A DNA stretch of 13,313 nucleotides from a virus (lineage: Duplodnaviria > Heunggongvirae > Uroviricota > Caudoviricetes). Position 1 is the stretch's first letter. Each line of letters starts with the position of its first letter. The notes under the pieces are model-generated. The model was not told the origin of the DNA. It made no database searches and was given only the letters and a program-made list of their open reading frames with translations. The stretch is taken from the IMG/VR virus record IMGVR_UViG_2703718794_000005; one strand, 5' to 3'. Shown piece by piece: positions 2,546 to 10,467 of the stretch. The position numbers and the translations under genes were made by a program.

Positions 2546-2650
2546 TTATTCTTTGGGTTCAATACCGCGTTGCTGTAATTCTTTTCGGATTATTCGTTTT
2601 ATCCAAGCAGCTAAAGAGTCATCACCGTCTTGTTGTTGTGCTTTTTCCAT
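2546..2650 (-). CDS. Possible 34-aa ORF (MEKAQQQDGDDSLAAWIKRIIRKELQQRGIEPKE), truncated paralog of the C-terminus of the 3231-3419 protein
   Basis: ATG (revcomp of 2648-2650) preceded by gggaaaag; C-terminus resembles ..AALKREVEYRQRRKAKESE of the 62-aa ORF; not in supplied ORF track (below size cut-off). Confidence 0.25.
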   Translation of the reverse strand: MEKAQQQDGDDSLAAWIKRIIRKELQQRGIEPKE

Positions 2651-2718
2651 CTTTTCCCGTAAGTCAGGATCTAAACGGAACTGGAAAGGAGGATTACCAC
2701 GCCTTTCATTCTTGTGTG

Positions 2719-2768
2719 TTGACACGTCAATTACACCCCATATAATGTGTTTATGTGTATATACACAT
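2719..2768 (+). promoter_or_regulatory. Consensus sigma70 promoter (TTGACA 2719-2724, 16-bp spacer, TATAAT 2741-2746) with 16-bp perfect palindrome ATGTGTATATACACAT (2753-2768) over the predicted +1
   Basis: Read directly from sequence; both hexamers match consensus 6/6; palindrome immediately downstream is operator-like. Confidence 0.6.
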
Positions 2769-2945: not shown

Positions 2946-3173
2946 TCATCCTGGCGGTCGGTTTTTGCCGGATTTAAGCCGCCGTGGGTATTTATCGACA
3001 AAATCTTCAAGGGCAAATTTTTCTGGTGGCACTAAGCGCGGCGCTGGTGGTGGTATTTTTGTTCTGGTTAGTTCTTCCTCAAGTCTGGCGCAGGCTTCTG
3101 ACTGCCTTTGCCGGATGATTTCATCATCTTGCGTTTGCGTGTCTTGTATTGGTGATAGTGTGTTGTTGGTCAT
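2946..3173 (-). CDS. Hypothetical small protein (75 aa), paralog of 2285-2488
   Basis: ORF start MTNN.. mirrors MTNK.. of the paralog; both preceded by the R1 element; shared C-terminal motif; protein-like composition. Confidence 0.55.
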   Translation of the reverse strand: MTNNTLSPIQDTQTQDDEIIRQRQSEACARLEEELTRTKIPPPAPRLVPPEKFALEDFVDKYPRRLKSGKNRPPG

Positions 3174-3181
3174 GATACTGC

Positions 3182-3225
3182 CCTGTAAAGCAATGCGCCG
3201 TAGTACCTCACACCACGGCGCTGAT
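3182..3225 (-). promoter_or_regulatory. Conserved 44-nt intercistronic hairpin element R1b
   Basis: cctgtaaagcaatgcgccgtagtacctcacaccacggcgctgat; on the minus-strand RNA forms a ~9-bp stem GCGCCGUGG/CUACGGCGC with GAGG in the loop; sits between stop of 3231-3419 and start of 2946-3173. Confidence 0.5.
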
Positions 3226-3230
3226 AGTGA

Positions 3231-3419
3231 TTATTCTGATTCTTTGGCCTTGCGACGCTGGCGGTATTCAACTTCCCGCTTTAATGCAGCTGTAACAAAC
3301 TGCCCTGTACTTTCGCCGGGCATTTTTACCGCCTCAACATTGTTCATAACTTCATGTGGAACCCTTGCCGCAACTGTTTGTGATTTTGCGTTTACTGCTT
3401 TTGTCGCCATGTTGAGCAC
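3231..3419 (-). CDS. Small DNA-binding regulator candidate (62 aa; possible ribbon-helix-helix type repressor)
   Basis: GTG start 4 nt after gagggg SD (alternative ATG 9 nt downstream); segment QTVAARVPHEVMNNVEAVK..GQFVTAALKREVE fits a beta-strand/helix/helix pattern; gene diverges from an operator array. Confidence 0.55.
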   Translation of the reverse strand: MLNMATKAVNAKSQTVAARVPHEVMNNVEAVKMPGESTGQFVTAALKREVEYRQRRKAKESE

Positions 3420-3460
3420 CCCTCATAAAAAACAAATGCAGTATGCAGGAAAAAAAATAA

Positions 3461-3537
3461 GTGTTCAACACTTGACGTGTTTAACACCTCGATTTAAATT
3501 GGTGTTCAACACCTTATTTAGGCAAGGTGTTGAAACG
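3461..3537. promoter_or_regulatory. Operator array: GTGTTcAACAC (3461-3471), GTGTTtAACAC (3477-3487), GTGTTcAACAC (3502-3512), GTGTTgAAAC (3527-3536), with divergent promoters
   Basis: Three perfect 5+1+5 palindromes plus a half-site variant, read directly; -35-like TTGACG (3472-3477) between O1 and O2 and -10-like TAAATT (3495-3500) for rightward transcription; leftward TTGAAC/CATACT candidate overlapping O1. Confidence 0.6.
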
Positions 3538-3542
3538 ACGAA

Positions 3543-3650
3543 ACCCCGCACTGTAGGAGCAGTAACGGGGCTTCTAACCAACAACGTAAACGAGGAGCCG
3601 TTATGGTTGCCGTAAATCATATACCACACCTTGTACACACACAAACTGCC
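3543..3650 (+). promoter_or_regulatory. Conserved structured leader R2b of the rightward operon
   Basis: Hairpin ccccg(3544-3548)..cgggg(3566-3570) with AGGAG in loop, tctaaccaa, SD gaggag + ATGGTT at 3603, tgtacacacacaaac; patchwise identical to R2a. Confidence 0.4.
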
Positions 3651-3675
3651 TTTGTGTGGCGTTTTCTGGCCCTGA

Positions 3676-4005
3676 GTGCCGGAGAATCTCAAATCATCCA
3701 CGTCACCGCCTGGACGGAACGCGAAGCGCGTAACCGTTGCCCGTCCGGTTGTGTTGCTGTATTTGCCGCCCGTATTCGTCAGGAGGTGCGCCATTATTAA
3801 TCTGTCACTTACTGACCTTAACCGCATTCAGTTTCGTGAGAAATTCACAGGGCAGCTACTGGTCAATGTGGATAAAGGTCGCGTGGTGTGTAATTACCAC
3901 TTACCAGATGAAGCAATTGTCGCCACAAGGGAATCATTACAGGAAATCACAAAACGTGCCGGAATGATTAACACGAATATTCAGGGGATGCTTTATGCAC
4001 AATAA
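3676..4005 (+). CDS. Hypothetical protein; start uncertain
   Basis: C-terminal two thirds (..LTDLNRIQFREKFTGQLLVNVDKGRVVCNYHLPDEAIVATRESLQEITKRAGM..) looks protein-like; N-terminal part from GTG 3676 is Pro/Arg-rich and overlaps alternative ORF 3603-3800 (65 aa, with SD and conserved ATGGTT start). A strong AGGAGG at 3780-3785 precedes an in-frame ATT (3793). Only one of the overlapping frames is likely translated. Confidence 0.4.
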   Translation: MPENLKSSTSPPGRNAKRVTVARPVVLLYLPPVFVRRCAIINLSLTDLNRIQFREKFTGQLLVNVDKGRVVCNYHLPDEAIVATRESLQEITKRAGMINTNIQGMLYAQ

Positions 4006-4689: not shown

Positions 4690-4989
4690 ATGAAACTTAA
4701 ATATTCTGGCTTAACTGCCAGTGGCAACACTCACCCTAAATTTACGCGCGGTGATATTTACCGCGACCAGTACGGCGGCACGGTAATGATTAAGGGCGTG
4801 GCGGGACGGTGCGTAACTTACCGCCGTGAAGGTTACGAATATGATTGCGTGATGCCTGTTTATCAGTTCCGGCGTGATTTTTCTCTGGTACAGACCGCGC
4901 CGCATAACGTGCCCACCAGCAACGCCAGGGCACGGGCAAACATCCAGAAGCTGAAAACCATGATTAACGGATTCAGGGGTAAAAAATGA
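4690..4989 (+). CDS. Hypothetical protein (99 aa), translationally coupled to the replication ATPase
   Basis: Stop overlaps start of next gene (ATGA at 4986-4989); protein-like composition. Confidence 0.6.
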   Translation: MKLKYSGLTASGNTHPKFTRGDIYRDQYGGTVMIKGVAGRCVTYRREGYEYDCVMPVYQFRRDFSLVQTAPHNVPTSNARARANIQKLKTMINGFRGKK

Positions 4990-6395
4990 AACTGGCACTG
5001 AACGTAAAACGATTACCGAAAGATAAATACACCGATGCGATTATTTTTGCGGGTATTGATGCTCACTCATTCGCAGAGCATTACATCATTGCACAGGCCA
5101 AAAAAGCAGGCGATCCAGTCCCTCCCGTTTATCTGGGGCGTTATCAGTTAAGCGAACTGGATAACCTCCAGATTGTTGATGATGGGCGATACAGGGCGAC
5201 GGTGATACGCGCCGGAAATATTGAAGAGCCGCAGCTGTTAACCATCGCCACGAAACTGGCGATCGCCGGAGTCCAGGAGGCGCGGCTACTTTCTGAAAAT
5301 TTCGAATTGCTGGAGGAATGGAGCGACCAGCTTCCACGGCTTAGGGAGGCATGGGAACGCGGGGAAAGCCTGGTCATGAAAAAAATTCCCCAGCGAAAAA
5401 CCACGCTACCGATGAGCGTTGGATCTACCGGATACGACACACAGCTTGATTACGTGGTAAAGGGGATTATTCCGGCATCGTCGCTTTGCAGCATATACGG
5501 GGCGAGCGGTTCCTATAAATCATTCCTTGCCGGATCGTGGGCGTGTCACGTTTCCACGGGCCGCCAGTGGGGAGGCCGCAGGGTGGCGCATGGCGCTGTT
5601 CTCTATGTGGTTGGTGAAGGCGGTATCGGCGTTCCGCGTCGTGTAAAAGCCTGGGAGGTTGTGCACGGTGAGCAGGTGAAAAATCTGTATCTGGTAAACC
5701 GTCCCATCTTTCCGGCGGTCCCGCTTGATGTTGATGAAATGGTTATCGCTGCCAGTCAGGTGGAGAGGGAAACGGGTAAACCTGTACGCATGATTATTCT
5801 GGATACGCTGGCGCGTTGCTTTGGTGGGAATGATGAAAATGATTCCCGTGATATGGGGGCGTTTATCCGTGGTTGTGACGAACTGAAACGGCGCACAGGG
5901 GCCACGGTGCTGGTGGTTCACCATTCCGGCAAGGATGAGACGAAAGGCGCGCGCGGTTCCAGTGCATTTCGTGCTTCGCTGGATGCTGAATACCGGATAC
6001 GCAGAGAGGACGCAGGCAGCGAAGCGCTGGTTATCTCATGCACCAAAATGAAGGACGCGGAGGAACTCAAAGAAGCCGCATATGACTTACGCGTGGTGGA
6101 GCTTTTTACCGACGCTGACGGGGAGTTAATCACGTCGCTGGTGGTGGTGGATAAGCCGCGCCCTCCCGTTGAACTGGAGCGCATCGAGGAGGCAGGGAAC
6201 AAGACGGAGAATCACGCCGCGCTATGGCAGTGCATCAGAACACGAACAGCACACGGGGAGGCGTGCACTATCGCCCTTCTCCGCGACGATATGAAAAAGC
6301 TGGGGTATGAGATGAAGCACTTCCGGCGCTGGCTGTACAAGCTGGAAAATGATGGCGTAATCGTTATTGATGGTGATGACGTGCGCCCGCTGTAA
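4986..6395 (+). CDS. Replication initiator / helicase-type RecA-fold ATPase (RepA/AAA_25-like)
   Basis: 469 aa; Walker A-like GASGSYKS, Walker B-like MIILDTLARC.GGNDEND, VLVVHHSGKD motif typical of RepA-like/DnaB-family ATPases; followed immediately by an iteron array. No primase (TOPRIM/zinc) motif noticed. Confidence 0.85.
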   Translation: MKLALNVKRLPKDKYTDAIIFAGIDAHSFAEHYIIAQAKKAGDPVPPVYLGRYQLSELDNLQIVDDGRYRATVIRAGNIEEPQLLTIATKLAIAGVQEARLLSENFELLEEWSDQLPRLREAWERGESLVMKKIPQRKTTLPMSVGSTGYDTQLDYVVKGIIPASSLCSIYGASGSYKSFLAGSWACHVSTGRQWGGRRVAHGAVLYVVGEGGIGVPRRVKAWEVVHGEQVKNLYLVNRPIFPAVPLDVDEMVIAASQVERETGKPVRMIILDTLARCFGGNDENDSRDMGAFIRGCDELKRRTGATVLVVHHSGKDETKGARGSSAFRASLDAEYRIRREDAGSEALVISCTKMKDAEELKEAAYDLRVVELFTDADGELITSLVVVDKPRPPVELERIEEAGNKTENHAALWQCIRTRTAHGEACTIALLRDDMKKLGYEMKHFRRWLYKLENDGVIVIDGDDVRPL

Positions 6396-7684: not shown

Positions 7685-7891
7685 ATGGCAGAAGAGAAAA
7701 AAGGCGGGGTGACCGTGTACATAAGCCCCGACATCGTGGAGGCGCTCAAGGAACGCCACCAGCAGAACGTAAAAGCAGGCATCGCGGCAGGACTTGATCC
7801 GCTGGCGATGGTTGAGCCGTCAACAGGCTGGCAGGTACGCGCCTATTTACGCGCGGCGCTGGGCATGAATCAGACGCATGGAGGTGAATAA
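7685..7891 (+). CDS. Hypothetical protein (68 aa), translationally coupled to major capsid gene
   Basis: SD agagga; stop TAA overlaps ATG of next gene (TAATG, 7889-7893). Confidence 0.55.
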   Translation: MAEEKKGGVTVYISPDIVEALKERHQQNVKAGIAAGLDPLAMVEPSTGWQVRAYLRAALGMNQTHGGE

Positions 7892-8946
7892 TGGCAGGCA
7901 AAGCAACGGCACTTAACACTAACCAGCTTTTCGCGTACCTGAATCGCGGGGATATTGCGGAATTTAAATTCAGTCCGCTGTTTACCACGCTGTTTTTCCC
8001 GAACGTGGCGACATTCAACACCCAAAACATCATGCTGGACACCCTGGACATTGAAGAGGTTACGATGTCGGCGTTTTGTTCGCCTATGGTGGGTAGTCAG
8101 GTCCAGCGCGATAAAGGGTACGAAACCAGCACGATTAAACCTGGATACATGAAGCCGAAGCACGAAATCGATCCAACGAAAACCATCATGCGCATGGCCG
8201 GAGAAGATCCGGCACAGCTTAACGACCCTACCTATCGCCGTATGCGCCTGATTACTGGCAATATGCGCCGCCAGGTAAACGCCATAAAAGCGCGCGTGGA
8301 ATGGCTGGCGGTAAATGCGGTAACGACCGGAAAAAACATCATTGAGGGCGAAGGCATAGAGCGCTATGAAATCGACTGGAAGATACCGGAAAAAAACATC
8401 ATAGAGCAGGCCAAAGGCCGTAAATGGTCAGAGCAGGACAAAGAAACTCACGATCCAATCTATGATATTGAGCTTTATGCGGATCAGGGCAATTGCCCCG
8501 CAAACGTCATGATTATGGGCGCTGAGGTATGGCGCACGTTACGCAGCTTTAAAAAATTCCGCGAACTGTACGATCTTTCCCGTGGTTCAGAATCCGCCGC
8601 AGAACTGGCCTGCAAAAACCTGGGCGAAGTGGTGAGCTTTAAAGGCTATCTGGGCGATATTGCCCTTATCGTCTATTCCGGCAAATACACTGACAGCGAC
8701 GGCACCGAAAAATATTTCCTTGAGCCTGATTTGCTGGTCCTGGGCAACACCAACAATAAAGGGCTGGTGGCCTATGGTGCGATTATGGAACAGGAAGCGG
8801 TAAGAACGGGCGCAACGCAAAACATGTACTACCCGAAAAACTGGATTGAGGACGGCGATCCGGCGATTGAGTACGTGCAGACACACAGCGCACCGCAGCC
8901 GGTACCGGCAGATATTCGCAAATTTGTTACCGTCAAAATTGGTTAA
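7891..8946 (+). CDS. Major capsid protein, lambda gpE family
   Basis: 351 aa; blocks FKFSPLF..LFF, KPGYMKPKHE, DPTYRRMRLI, HDPIYDIELYA, RSFKKF, RGSESAAE, LGEVVSFKGYLGDIALIVYSGKY, FLEPDLLVLGNT, YPKNWIEDGDPA, SAP..AD..KFVTV align with lambda E protein as I recall it. Confidence 0.9.
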   Translation: MAGKATALNTNQLFAYLNRGDIAEFKFSPLFTTLFFPNVATFNTQNIMLDTLDIEEVTMSAFCSPMVGSQVQRDKGYETSTIKPGYMKPKHEIDPTKTIMRMAGEDPAQLNDPTYRRMRLITGNMRRQVNAIKARVEWLAVNAVTTGKNIIEGEGIERYEIDWKIPEKNIIEQAKGRKWSEQDKETHDPIYDIELYADQGNCPANVMIMGAEVWRTLRSFKKFRELYDLSRGSESAAELACKNLGEVVSFKGYLGDIALIVYSGKYTDSDGTEKYFLEPDLLVLGNTNNKGLVAYGAIMEQEAVRTGATQNMYYPKNWIEDGDPAIEYVQTHSAPQPVPADIRKFVTVKIG

Positions 8947-8957
8947 CGGGGGATTCT

Positions 8958-9293
8958 ATGGACACTCCATACATTGAGTTATTCGCAGGCAGTCAGCAGG
9001 TCGCCACGACGCTGGTACATTTTGCCGCTGATGCTGGCGTTATTCAGGAATTTACCCCGCTGATGCTGGCGGACAATGGCGAGTTTAAGCCGTGGGATGG
9101 TCAGGAATCTGGCAAGGCTGTTTATCTGACTTCGTACCCCGTGGACACGTCGACGCAGAAATCAGCACAGTGTTACAAGACGGGGATATTTAATATCGCT
9201 GCCGTAAACTGGCCTGAGAGCGCCGACACTGACGCGAAAAAATGCGCTGCCTTTGCGGGGTCTGGCGTATCCGTTCAGCCGCTGGCCCGATAA
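8958..9293 (+). CDS. Head decoration protein, lambda gpD-like
   Basis: 111 aa; TPLMLAD..WDG..YKTGIF..WPESADTDAKKCAAFAGSGVS matches remembered lambda D ([36 protein letters not shown]). Gene order E then D is reversed relative to lambda. Confidence 0.8.
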   Translation: MDTPYIELFAGSQQVATTLVHFAADAGVIQEFTPLMLADNGEFKPWDGQESGKAVYLTSYPVDTSTQKSAQCYKTGIFNIAAVNWPESADTDAKKCAAFAGSGVSVQPLAR

Positions 9294-9830: not shown

Positions 9831-9924
9831 GTGGTGGTTTTGTTGTTCGCTCTATCTCTATGAATAAAAAGGGAAAGATAAAAACAATACACCAACCTGA
9901 AACATTACTTAAGTGGGGATATTG

Positions 9925-10467
9925 ATGAAATCGCACCTGATGAACAAAAAAAACATGGCGCAAAGCTGCCGTGTAAGTGCGACAGCGTTCGACAAGTGGC
10001 GAGTGACTCCCGTTGAACGTAAAGGACGCGAGGCTTTTTACGATGTTGCCAGCGTGATAGACAATCGGGTAAGCAATGCAATTAACCAGGTTACAAACGA
10101 CAAAGGCGAGATTGATGATGATGAACTCTTACGAGTCAGGATCAGATTACTGACCGCCCAGGCGGAGGCGCAGGAACTTAAAAACGAGCGCGATCGCGGT
10201 GACGTAATTGATACAGAGTTTTGCATGTACGCGCTTTCAAAACTGGCGAGCCAGATTTCTTCAATCATGGACAGCCTACCGCTTACGATGCAAAGGAGCT
10301 TCCCACAGATTACCCCCGCCATGCTGGATGGGCTTAAAAGGGAAGTGGTTAAAGCCTGTAATGCCAGTGCCAGAGTTGCCGACAACCTTCCGCAGATACT
10401 GGCTGATTACTTGAAAGAAACTACCGGAAACGTACCGGAAAAGTTGCTACAGAAGAAACGTGAGTAA
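9925..10467 (+). CDS. Small terminase subunit, lambda Nu1-like (TerS; could act as a packaging-redirecting TerS homolog)
   Basis: Central block LTAQAEAQELKNERDRGDVIDTEFCMYALSKLASQISSIMDSLPLTMQRSFPQ..LKREVVKACN aligns with lambda Nu1 (LTRAQADAQELKNARDSAEVVETAFCTFVLSRIAGEIASILDGLPLSVQRRFPE..LKRDIIKAMN). ATG 9925 has SD gtgggga; ORF track starts at GTG 9913; ATG 9940 also possible. Confidence 0.85.
   Translation: MKSHLMNKKNMAQSCRVSATAFDKWRVTPVERKGREAFYDVASVIDNRVSNAINQVTNDKGEIDDDELLRVRIRLLTAQAEAQELKNERDRGDVIDTEFCMYALSKLASQISSIMDSLPLTMQRSFPQITPAMLDGLKREVVKACNASARVADNLPQILADYLKETTGNVPEKLLQKKRE

Follow-up and report, generated by a model that had tools for sequence, protein, structure and literature searches.

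In the immI region of phage P22 two ribbon-helix-helix (RHH) repressors, Arc and Mnt, are combined with an antisense RNA, sar, and the Stl proteins of Gram-positive satellites are larger helix-turn-helix (HTH) repressors that lose their activity when they bind proteins of the helper. Here we describe a locus that can be compared with both, on a 13,313-nucleotide stretch of DNA (the whole of it is called the window below) from the IMG/VR virus record IMGVR_UViG_2703718794_000005, assigned to the Caudoviricetes. The window is an EcCICFT073-type Gram-negative phage-inducible chromosomal island (PICI), and the locus consists of a leftward gene for a 59-residue protein of the YlcI/YnfO family, a predicted RHH repressor, and of palindromic sites that lie between this gene and the rightward genes of the island. 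From comparison of related sequences we consider it quite probable that this protein, with operators that have diversified along with it, silences the rightward replication operon, and that an antisense RNA acts as a second lock.

The identity of the element follows from its chromosomal site and gene order. The window is 100% identical to the roxA–phoQ interval of E. coli 2013C-3181, and the CFT073 element, which was named EcCICFT073 by Fillol-Salom et al. and whose capsid (c1499) and decoration (c1500) have been described (PMC6092414), occupies the same roxA–phoQ site with the same order of genes. In the identical RefSeq locus an integrase and an AlpA-type HTH gene (Pfam AlpA, E 5e-18) are followed by four small leftward genes and then by the rightward genes, which are Icd-like, small genes, DUF4222, RepA helicase, SSB, major capsid, head decoration and a frameshifted terS. 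This is the layout of a PICI, i.e. int, alpA, a regulatory zone, replication genes and capsid/decoration/terS within about 10-15 kb at a specific att site.

In this island family AlpA is an activator and the helper phage induces alpA expression (PMC6092414); over-expression of alpA by itself, with no helper present, makes EcCICFT073 excise and replicate (PMC6092414). For the zone that extends from alpA to the replication genes, a later survey listed Bro-N proteins and immunity RNAs (PMC10111431), and in the later satellite literature, which names AlpA, Bro-N proteins and immunity RNAs, we found no protein repressor described in this zone. A literature search for a function of YlcI/YnfO returned the annotation label alone. 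The protein described here, new and as yet uncharacterised, joins a known kind of regulator, and it is encoded where no repressor is on record.

The candidate repressor gene and its predicted operators

The features of the switch and of the operon that it faces are the following, in window coordinates.

3231..3410, minus strand: YlcI/YnfO-family protein of 59 aa, predicted RHH repressor
3419..3424, minus strand: Shine-Dalgarno (SD) sequence GAGGGG of the repressor gene, 8 nt ahead of the ATG at 3410, read from sequence
3441..3468, minus strand: putative leftward promoter P_L, with -35 TTGAAC (3468-3463), a 16-nt spacer and -10 CATACT (3446-3441)
3461..3471: predicted operator O3, GTGTTCAACAC, overlapping the P_L -35 and abutting the P_R -35
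3472..3500, plus strand: rightward promoter P_R, sigma-70-like, with TTGACG (3472-3477), a 17-nt spacer and TAAATT (3495-3500), from a promoter scan
3477..3487: predicted operator O1, GTGTTTAACAC, filling the P_R spacer, its first G being the last base of the -35
3502..3512: predicted operator O2, GTGTTCAACAC, 2 nt past the -10 and over the expected P_R transcription start
3505..3534: hairpin or inverted repeat TTCAACACCTT-N8-AAGGTGTTGAA, with arms of 11 nt (3505-3515 and 3524-3534) that are 100% complementary
3603..3800, plus strand: first rightward gene, encoding a 65-aa Icd-like protein (NCBIfam phage_ICD_like, E 5e-18; annotation of the identical RefSeq record)
4690-4989, plus strand: DUF4222 gene of the same rightward operon
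4986-6395, plus strand: RepA-type helicase gene of the same rightward operon

The minus-strand open reading frame (ORF) at 3231-3419 translates as VLNMATKAVN..., and the initial annotation had read it as a 62-aa protein starting at the GTG at 3419. The ORF is there, but the start was moved to the ATG at 3410, as RefSeq annotates this ATG and all homologues begin with MATK or MATG, which leaves 59 residues. The protein matches NCBIfam NF041551 (YlcI/YnfO) at 59.7 bits against a cutoff of 30 (E 2e-16), the identical protein in RefSeq is named "YlcI/YnfO family protein", and there is also a match to PHROG 949, a family without assigned function. The RHH pattern that had been suggested from the sequence agrees with structure prediction, in which a strand at about residues 11-17 is followed by helices at 19-28 and 35-58; this is the beta-alpha-alpha arrangement, of about 45 residues, that is expected of an RHH protein, and the closest predicted folds are CopG of pMV158, omega of pSM19035 and AmrZ of Pseudomonas. 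The structural-match scores for this fold are modest, and DSSP assigns no strand in the single-chain model, as expected for a strand that is unpaired.

Sequence searches gave no match of 48 family members to the Pfam RHH families at E<=1, except for weak hints to CB_ParB_C and PSK_trans_fac, and no Pfam family match for the window protein. Neither phmmer nor hmmsearch against the Protein Data Bank (PDB) gave anything relevant among solved RHH proteins, and hhalign of the YlcI/YnfO family with a neighbouring Arc-like paralogue (E 0.13) lent no sequence-level support to the fold. Within the family alignment S10, R16, H19, G32-E33-S34 and F38 are invariant and residues 11-15 are hypervariable. 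No homologue was found by tblastn in 50,697 phage records, and the subfamily looks satellite-specific rather than phage-borne.

The region between the minus-strand and plus-strand ORFs (3411-3602) contains the three perfect 11-bp palindromes that had been reported there: GTGTTNAACAC is present in three exact copies, starting at 3461, 3477 and 3502, with no further exact match in the 13.3 kb. The mean number of exact copies expected by chance is 0.01, and three copies were obtained in none of 200 dinucleotide shuffles. A variant, GTGTTGAAACG at about 3527-3537, had been counted as one more operator. This site was discarded: it has three mismatches, is missed even in a search that allows two, and coincides with the 3' arm of the inverted repeat at 3505-3534, whose 5' arm is the right half of O2. 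In relatives that have other sites, moreover, a hairpin persists at this place but is unlike those sites. The hairpin is present in most relatives, with sequences that differ and with no clear strand preference. Another match, ATGTTGAGCAC at 3409-3419, with two mismatches, was treated as due to chance, as it runs across the start codon and has no counterpart in L006, the Edwardsiella locus described below.

Hexamers had been proposed for transcription in both directions, and of these the rightward pair stands as described, while the leftward pair is weaker than was implied, matching 8 of 12 consensus positions and falling under the promoter-scan threshold. The equivalent of the P_L -10 in relatives is TATACT or TATATT at the same offset, and we infer this promoter because a TATACT-like -10 is kept at the same position there. 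The position of O3 is common to L006 and the Kosakonia locus L010 only; most relatives have instead a site at +22 from the repressor ATG, which lies over the P_L start.

Since the sites fill the spacer and cover the +1 of a near-consensus promoter, repression at P_R would be of the occlusion type. RHH and Xis-like factors can also work as activators or as architectural factors, and the protein might bind the sites in such a capacity, for P_R or for excision; with a spacer site and a site over +1, which is the classic geometry of occlusion, and with all sites far from att and int, we regard this as very unlikely.

Alternatively, the protein might be an RHH antitoxin and form a type II toxin-antitoxin pair with the downstream small gene, the sites serving the autoregulation of the pair only. 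The RHH antitoxins TacA, ParD, MazE4 and CopA are among the structural neighbours of the protein, the paralogue at 2546-2725 has a weak VapB-antitoxin match (E 0.012), and a small RHH gene followed by a small ORF is an order that resembles a toxin-antitoxin operon. However, no toxin family was matched by the downstream ORFs in family searches, the RHH gene and the downstream ORF are separated by a gap of 57 nt that contains a conserved hairpin, and one relative (L005) is without the downstream gene. In addition, two of the three sites lie on the -35, -10 and +1 of the opposing promoter, the position of which is kept in all relatives. An antitoxin role is thus very unlikely in our estimate, and we return to the protein as a repressor of P_R.

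Covariation of the sites with the predicted recognition strand

Related islands span about a dozen enterobacterial genera. Matches to the switch region occur in 1366 of 5426 complete E. coli genomes (about a quarter), with up to six such places per genome, and homologues of the 59-aa protein are encoded in E. coli, Salmonella, Klebsiella, Edwardsiella, Pectobacterium, Serratia, Proteus, Xenorhabdus and others. The sample that we compared comprised E. coli loci of falling identity, 33 loci from other species and two loci that encode a natural chimera; 29 loci with intact structure served for architecture and covariation, and 40 loci for the search for exact sites.

The architecture of the 29 loci is fixed. 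One 11-bp site begins at the last base of the -35 TTGAnn, a second lies directly past the -10, and the usual third is at +22, just downstream of the TATACT -10 on the repressor strand, so that offsets from the repressor ATG are about +22, +67 and +88-93 (once +102). The P_R -35 itself is offset by 62 nt from this ATG in 25 of the 29 loci and lies within 3 nt of that place in the other four, and a TAnnnT -10 is found 16-18 nt from it. In contrast, the sequence of the sites varies among loci while the copies in one locus agree, and it tracks residues 11-16 of the adjacent protein one-to-one, in at least 11 specificity classes. The expectation that the sites be conserved in related islands is therefore borne out for their positions but not for their sequence, which changes by class: exact GTGTTNAACAC is confined, among the 40 loci, to the four that have a QT[VIL]AAR strand. 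Residues 11-16, the sites that accompany them and the loci concerned are as follows.

QT[VIL]AAR: GTGTTcAACAC; window, Edwardsiella L006, Pectobacterium L007, Kosakonia L010
[KR]KLEAR: GTGGCTGACAC; 12 loci
QS[VL]TAR: GTGTAAGACAC; includes the 101-aa variants of Nissle 1917
KRFDVR: GTGTC[CG]GACAC; L016, L023
QK[LV]Q[AT]R: GTGGAGTCCAC; L013, L015, L029
QKIQAR: TGTACTCCAC / TGGAATCCAG; L031, L033
QKMSAR: TGGGTGCCAG; L025, L030
QKTSVR: GTGTCCgxCAC; L011
QMTTVR: GTGTATTTCAC; L005
QALKAR: GTGGGCCACAC; EcCICFT073 itself

Within one locus O1 and O2 are mismatched at 0.63 of 11 positions, and between loci the sites differ by 1.07 positions when residues 12 and 14 are alike and by 3.63 otherwise. Strand and site are correlated in a Mantel test (r = 0.40, p <= 0.0002), also when the rest of the protein is controlled for (partial r = 0.32, p = 0.002); the corresponding partial value for the rest of the protein and the site, with the strand controlled, is 0.07 (p = 0.24). 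A gene that adjoins its operators could show part of this covariation merely because the two are linked. Since the three copies per locus change together, however, the covariation goes beyond what linkage alone would give. A natural chimera, P0027, has an N-terminal half of the type found in L002 and a C-terminal half of the window type, and the sites that adjoin it are L002-type, as had been predicted beforehand. Linkage as the cause is thus countered by the concerted change of the copies, by the partial Mantel test and by the chimera. The invariance of the outer GTG/CAC fits that of S10 and R16, and the variable centre of the site fits the variable residues between them; from the comparison we conclude that the 59-aa protein probably binds these sites via its N-terminal strand. 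Predicted fold and operator–strand covariation across about 30 related islands together strongly favour what had been suggested for the window at the outset, a small repressor that diverges from an array of its operators.

One may also consider that the 59-aa protein has nothing to do with the palindromes and that another regulator binds them, such as AlpA, the small downstream protein, a product encoded in the rightward operon, or a factor from the host or the helper. AlpA is the sole experimentally established regulator of the island family (PMC6092414), and the case for binding by the small protein is a sequence-based one. Yet L002, whose AlpA is identical to that of the window (WP_000953271.1) and whose leader and first-gene start are near-identical, has GTGTAAGACAC sites, and AlpA was rejected as the site-binding protein on this ground. 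The small leftward partner encoded downstream (WP_000182306.1) accompanies two different repressors, each with a different set of sites, and the type of first gene is dissociated from the type of site, L010 and L012 sharing the former and differing in the latter. A host or helper factor, finally, could not explain at least 11 site classes that each match the strand variant of the adjacent protein. We therefore give very little credence to another regulator as the one that reads these sites.

Clustered short repeats are typical of replication origins, and PICI origins hold iterons (PMC6092414), so the repeats could in principle be iterons, or packaging signals, rather than transcriptional operators. 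Published PICI origins, however, lie 3' of the rep gene, unlike these sites (PMC6092414), and the sites keep constant distances from the promoter hexamers. Moreover, they covary with the adjacent RHH protein, while the replication proteins (RepA helicase, primase, DUF927) vary freely with the same or with different sites. Such a role appears extremely improbable, and we continue to regard the palindromes as operators.

The same module is found in EcCICFT073 itself (L044, CFT073 NC_004431.1 1380242-1381052), where the strand is QALKAR and the sites are two copies of GTGGGCCACAC and one of GTGGGGGACAG. Three small genes of that module bear RefSeq locus tags that are late (C_RS30120, C_RS30125 and C_RS30800), which suggests that the original annotation, on which the PICI papers relied, lacked them.

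Two sets of relatives deserve separate mention. In Edwardsiella hoshinae (L006, NZ_BAUC01000010.1) the repressor agrees with that of the window at every residue from 1 to 57, and all three GTGTTNAACAC sites recur at the window offsets, while the leader and the first rightward gene differ; by its sequence this locus indicates spread of the switch across genera and its modular exchange. In E. coli Nissle 1917 and 2014C-3050 (L041/L042, 2600-2905) there are long family variants of 101 aa, with about 40 extra residues placed after the second helix and ahead of the shared basic C-terminal tail, a QSLTAR strand and degenerate GTGTAAG-type sites. This addition might be a domain for sensing or for oligomerisation.

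A candidate antisense RNA and the proposed mechanism

Between O2 and the first rightward gene, relatives share a hairpin, then CTTCTAACCA, and then a second small hairpin around the SD. Two more features belong to this region.

3531..3610, minus strand: candidate cis-antisense RNA of about 70-80 nt, with putative ends, from consensus fold and covariation
3616..3621, minus strand: candidate -10 of the antisense promoter, TATGAT, inside codons 5-7 of the first rightward gene

A model in which the leader forms a hairpin on the plus strand, with a consensus energy of -2.7 kcal/mol and mismatches that are nearly all A.C, was replaced by a minus-strand model, for which RNAalifold gives -25.3 kcal/mol. 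The minus-strand consensus has 21 pairs, 14 of them with compensatory changes, and 96.9% of cells are paired on it, compared with 36-47% when the partners are slid. In the outer stem, read on the plus strand, A.C accounts for 25 of the 27 non-standard cells and G.U for none, the pattern that G.U pairs on the minus strand leave behind. The window's own copy of this segment folds at -32.5 kcal/mol (z -3.9) on the minus strand and at -22.8 kcal/mol (z -1.5) on the plus strand. The conserved opposite-strand structure is probably a cis-antisense RNA. Its 5' part is complementary to the SD (3591-3596) and the ATG (3603-3605) of the first rightward gene, with the anti-SD in a loop, and at its 3' end a hairpin (3540-3574) runs into a U-rich tail, as in an intrinsic terminator. 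In the candidate -10, TAnnnT is invariant in all 28 aligned relatives (columns 30, 31 and 35), two of the three invariant bases being third codon positions. This putative second regulatory layer, a structured RNA opposite the translation start of the first gene, had been overlooked in the initial annotation.

No Rfam family matched the window at the gathering threshold, and none that is relevant did so at E<=10 over 3150-3900. The leader was also considered as an RNA like P1 c4 or P4 CI, and this was dropped, there being no C4 or isrK match in the window even at E<=10. C4 antisense RNA (77.6 bits) and isrK (66 bits) do occur in L002 (3002-3187) and L003 (3004-3189), between the same P_R leader and an icd-like gene, in an arrangement like that of P1 immI. 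In the window that segment, some 360 bp long, is absent, and the Icd-like ORF there fuses the upstream N-terminus straight to the Icd-like domain.

In the mechanism that we propose, repressor dimers would read the 11-bp GTGTTnAACAC sites in the major groove, where they would insert their N-terminal beta-strands (about residues 10-16, S-Q-T-V-A-A-R). With O1 in the P_R spacer and O2 at the start site occupied, the rightward operon (Icd-like, small genes, replication helicase) would be off, and the protein would keep the integrated island silent, since the operon under its control extends from the Icd-like gene to those for replication. O3 overlaps the -35 of P_L, from which the repressor itself would be transcribed, and would provide negative autoregulation, for which most relatives would use their site at +1 instead. 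As a second lock, the short opposite-strand RNA would pair with the start codon of the first rightward gene and with the ribosome-binding site ahead of it. Recognition strand and operators would have diversified jointly into many specificities that behave like immunity groups, so that co-resident or incoming islands of other types would not be cross-regulated; the presence of up to six such places in one genome would favour heteroimmune types.

The proposals that this locus is the satellite's master switch between maintenance and induction, and that a helper-phage cue acts at it, found no support. The known cue enters upstream of the switch, or parallel to it, because the helper induces alpA and over-expression of alpA alone suffices (PMC6092414). 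The lock might be opened by an anti-repressor, supplied by the helper or by the Bro-N/AntA genes that are located in this zone in L004 and L005, or by AlpA acting at P_R. A third, speculative option is AlpA-dependent read-through from P_alpA, by analogy with the AlpA of Pseudomonas, a processive antiterminator (PMC7969949, PMC9371919) that is likened to the island AlpA by name.

Several points weigh against the mechanism outlined above. We infer binding, repression, autoregulation, expression of the antisense RNA and override at induction from comparison of sequences. A simple recognition code based on residues 12 and 14 had to be abandoned, as K12/S14 goes with two types of site (L011 versus L025/L030), and the specificity classes are phylogenetically non-independent samples; linkage between the repressor and its adjoining operators, discussed above, could account for part of the covariation. 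The antisense promoter has a poor -35 (TTGTGT), and its conservation overlaps coding sequence. Finally, AlpA alone induces EcCICFT073 (PMC6092414), so a scheme in which the helper inactivates a repressor is not required.

With these points in mind, we offer a wider proposal tentatively, as one that we would not yet call likely: that the YlcI/YnfO-type RHH protein is the missing maintenance and immunity repressor of Gram-negative PICIs, including EcCICFT073, that it forms a double lock with the antisense RNA and comes in a dozen or more orthogonal immunity types, and that AlpA overrides or bypasses this lock rather than working by simple promoter activation.

Neighbouring modules and comparison with known systems

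Other features of the window are listed here.

2946..3173, minus strand: gene of 75 aa in the leftward operon, following the repressor gene, without a family match
3195-3221 and 2510-2536: conserved G+C-rich hairpins (GCGCCGTGGTGTGAGGTACTACGGCGC as read on the minus strand), each separating an RHH gene from the small gene that follows it
2546-2725, minus strand: Arc-like 59-aa RHH gene (PHROG "Arc-like repressor", E 1.5e-6; weak YlcI match, E 5e-4)
2719-2746, plus strand: perfect 12/12 promoter TTGACA-16-TATAAT, diverging from the Arc-like RHH gene
2753-2768: perfect 16-bp palindrome ATGTGTATATACACAT, directly past that promoter
about 2790-2830: copy of the conserved leader hairpin, in the second module
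2857: start of a truncated ORF, in the second module
7891-9293 and about 9913-10467: homologues of the lambda-E-like major capsid and D-like decoration proteins, as in EcCICFT073 (c1499, c1500)

A unit made of a small gene, an RHH gene and a leader is repeated in the window at a spacing of 685 bp (75-nt repeat, 80% identity), and by its sequence the stretch 2546-2860 is best read as a second, stacked switch module, whose promoter at 2719-2746, if active, points antisense into the YlcI operon. The hairpins at 3195-3221 and 2510-2536 are part of the 75-nt repeat, are terminator-like with a weak U tail, and may be an attenuator inside the leftward operon. The paralogous partner of the 75-aa gene (2285-2488) is paired in L002 with another repressor and other sites, and because of this it is not taken as the determinant of specificity. 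At the other end of the island, packaging by this copy may be defective, because the identical RefSeq record marks terS, the small terminase gene, as frameshifted.

The surroundings of alpA have some features of their own. A repeat of about 21 nt is present upstream of the gene in three copies, at 1523-1563 and 1773-1793, with the core ACAACGTGACACAATCA / CCTGACACAATCA, and is a candidate AlpA-binding or promoter element for the known positive autoregulation of alpA. Hairpins at 2186-2215 and 2045-2067 lie between alpA (end 2041) and the leftward operon (end 2285), which are convergent; a scan calls minus-strand terminators at 2067-2045, and this bears on whether AlpA-dependent read-through would reach the switch. 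The Rfam int-alpA RNA (RF02996) was found at 39-42 bits in three relatives (L007 5853-5921, L011 5966-6038 and L025 5519-5587), and the Rfam search gave no match to it in the window.

Since the switch module is also found in EcCICFT073, a standard model element without a described repressor, it is directly testable. Questions that can now be addressed are how satellites stay silent, how AlpA or the helper overrides this silence, and why related islands coexist in one cell (heteroimmunity). The natural pairs of strand and operator, in addition, represent a panel of small, probably orthogonal repressors and a data set for the recognition code of RHH proteins.

Among known systems, P22 immI resembles the window in the predicted RHH repressor logic, and the candidate antisense RNA of the window, if expressed, would be like its sar. 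Its proteins, however, have no detectable sequence similarity to that of the window, it controls an antirepressor whereas the window switch would control a satellite operon of Icd-like and replication genes, and its operator is of 21 bp, in contrast to three 11-bp sites of extensively diversified specificity. Stl (Rpr) of SaPIs (Staphylococcus aureus pathogenicity islands) and other Gram-positive PICIs has the same position and the same logic, that of a divergent repressor on the integrase side which silences the satellite operon for excision and replication (PMC6092414). The window protein differs in being a predicted RHH protein of 59 aa, and the proven inducer pathway of its island family runs via AlpA. 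We know of no helper anti-repressor for a switch of the window type. General family-library scans of the window proteins gave no match that names an Stl-type repressor, and the likeness to Stl is one of gene arrangement alone.

P1 immI (c4 RNA - icd - ant) and the CI RNA of satellite P4 share with the window an Icd-like gene that comes first in the controlled operon, and immunity RNAs have been noted in the "Bro zones" of Gram-negative PICIs (PMC10111431). In the window, by contrast, the candidate RNA is on the opposite strand and matches no Rfam family, and primary control would be by a protein repressor. CopG (pMV158), omega (pSM19035) and AmrZ, the closest predicted folds, are small RHH dimers that bind arrays of short repeats that overlap promoters, but they differ in sequence family, repeat geometry and biological context. 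The E. coli K-12 prophage proteins YlcI (DLP12) and YnfO (Qin) are members of the same NCBIfam family, NF041551, and are uncharacterised; they adjoin nohD and nohA in the late regions of cryptic lambdoid prophages, and are not known as part of a divergent switch. Although it lies outside the Arc/Mnt/CopG and Stl sequence families, the window switch is, by its predicted fold and its logic, a repressor–operator system of the Arc/Mnt/CopG type.

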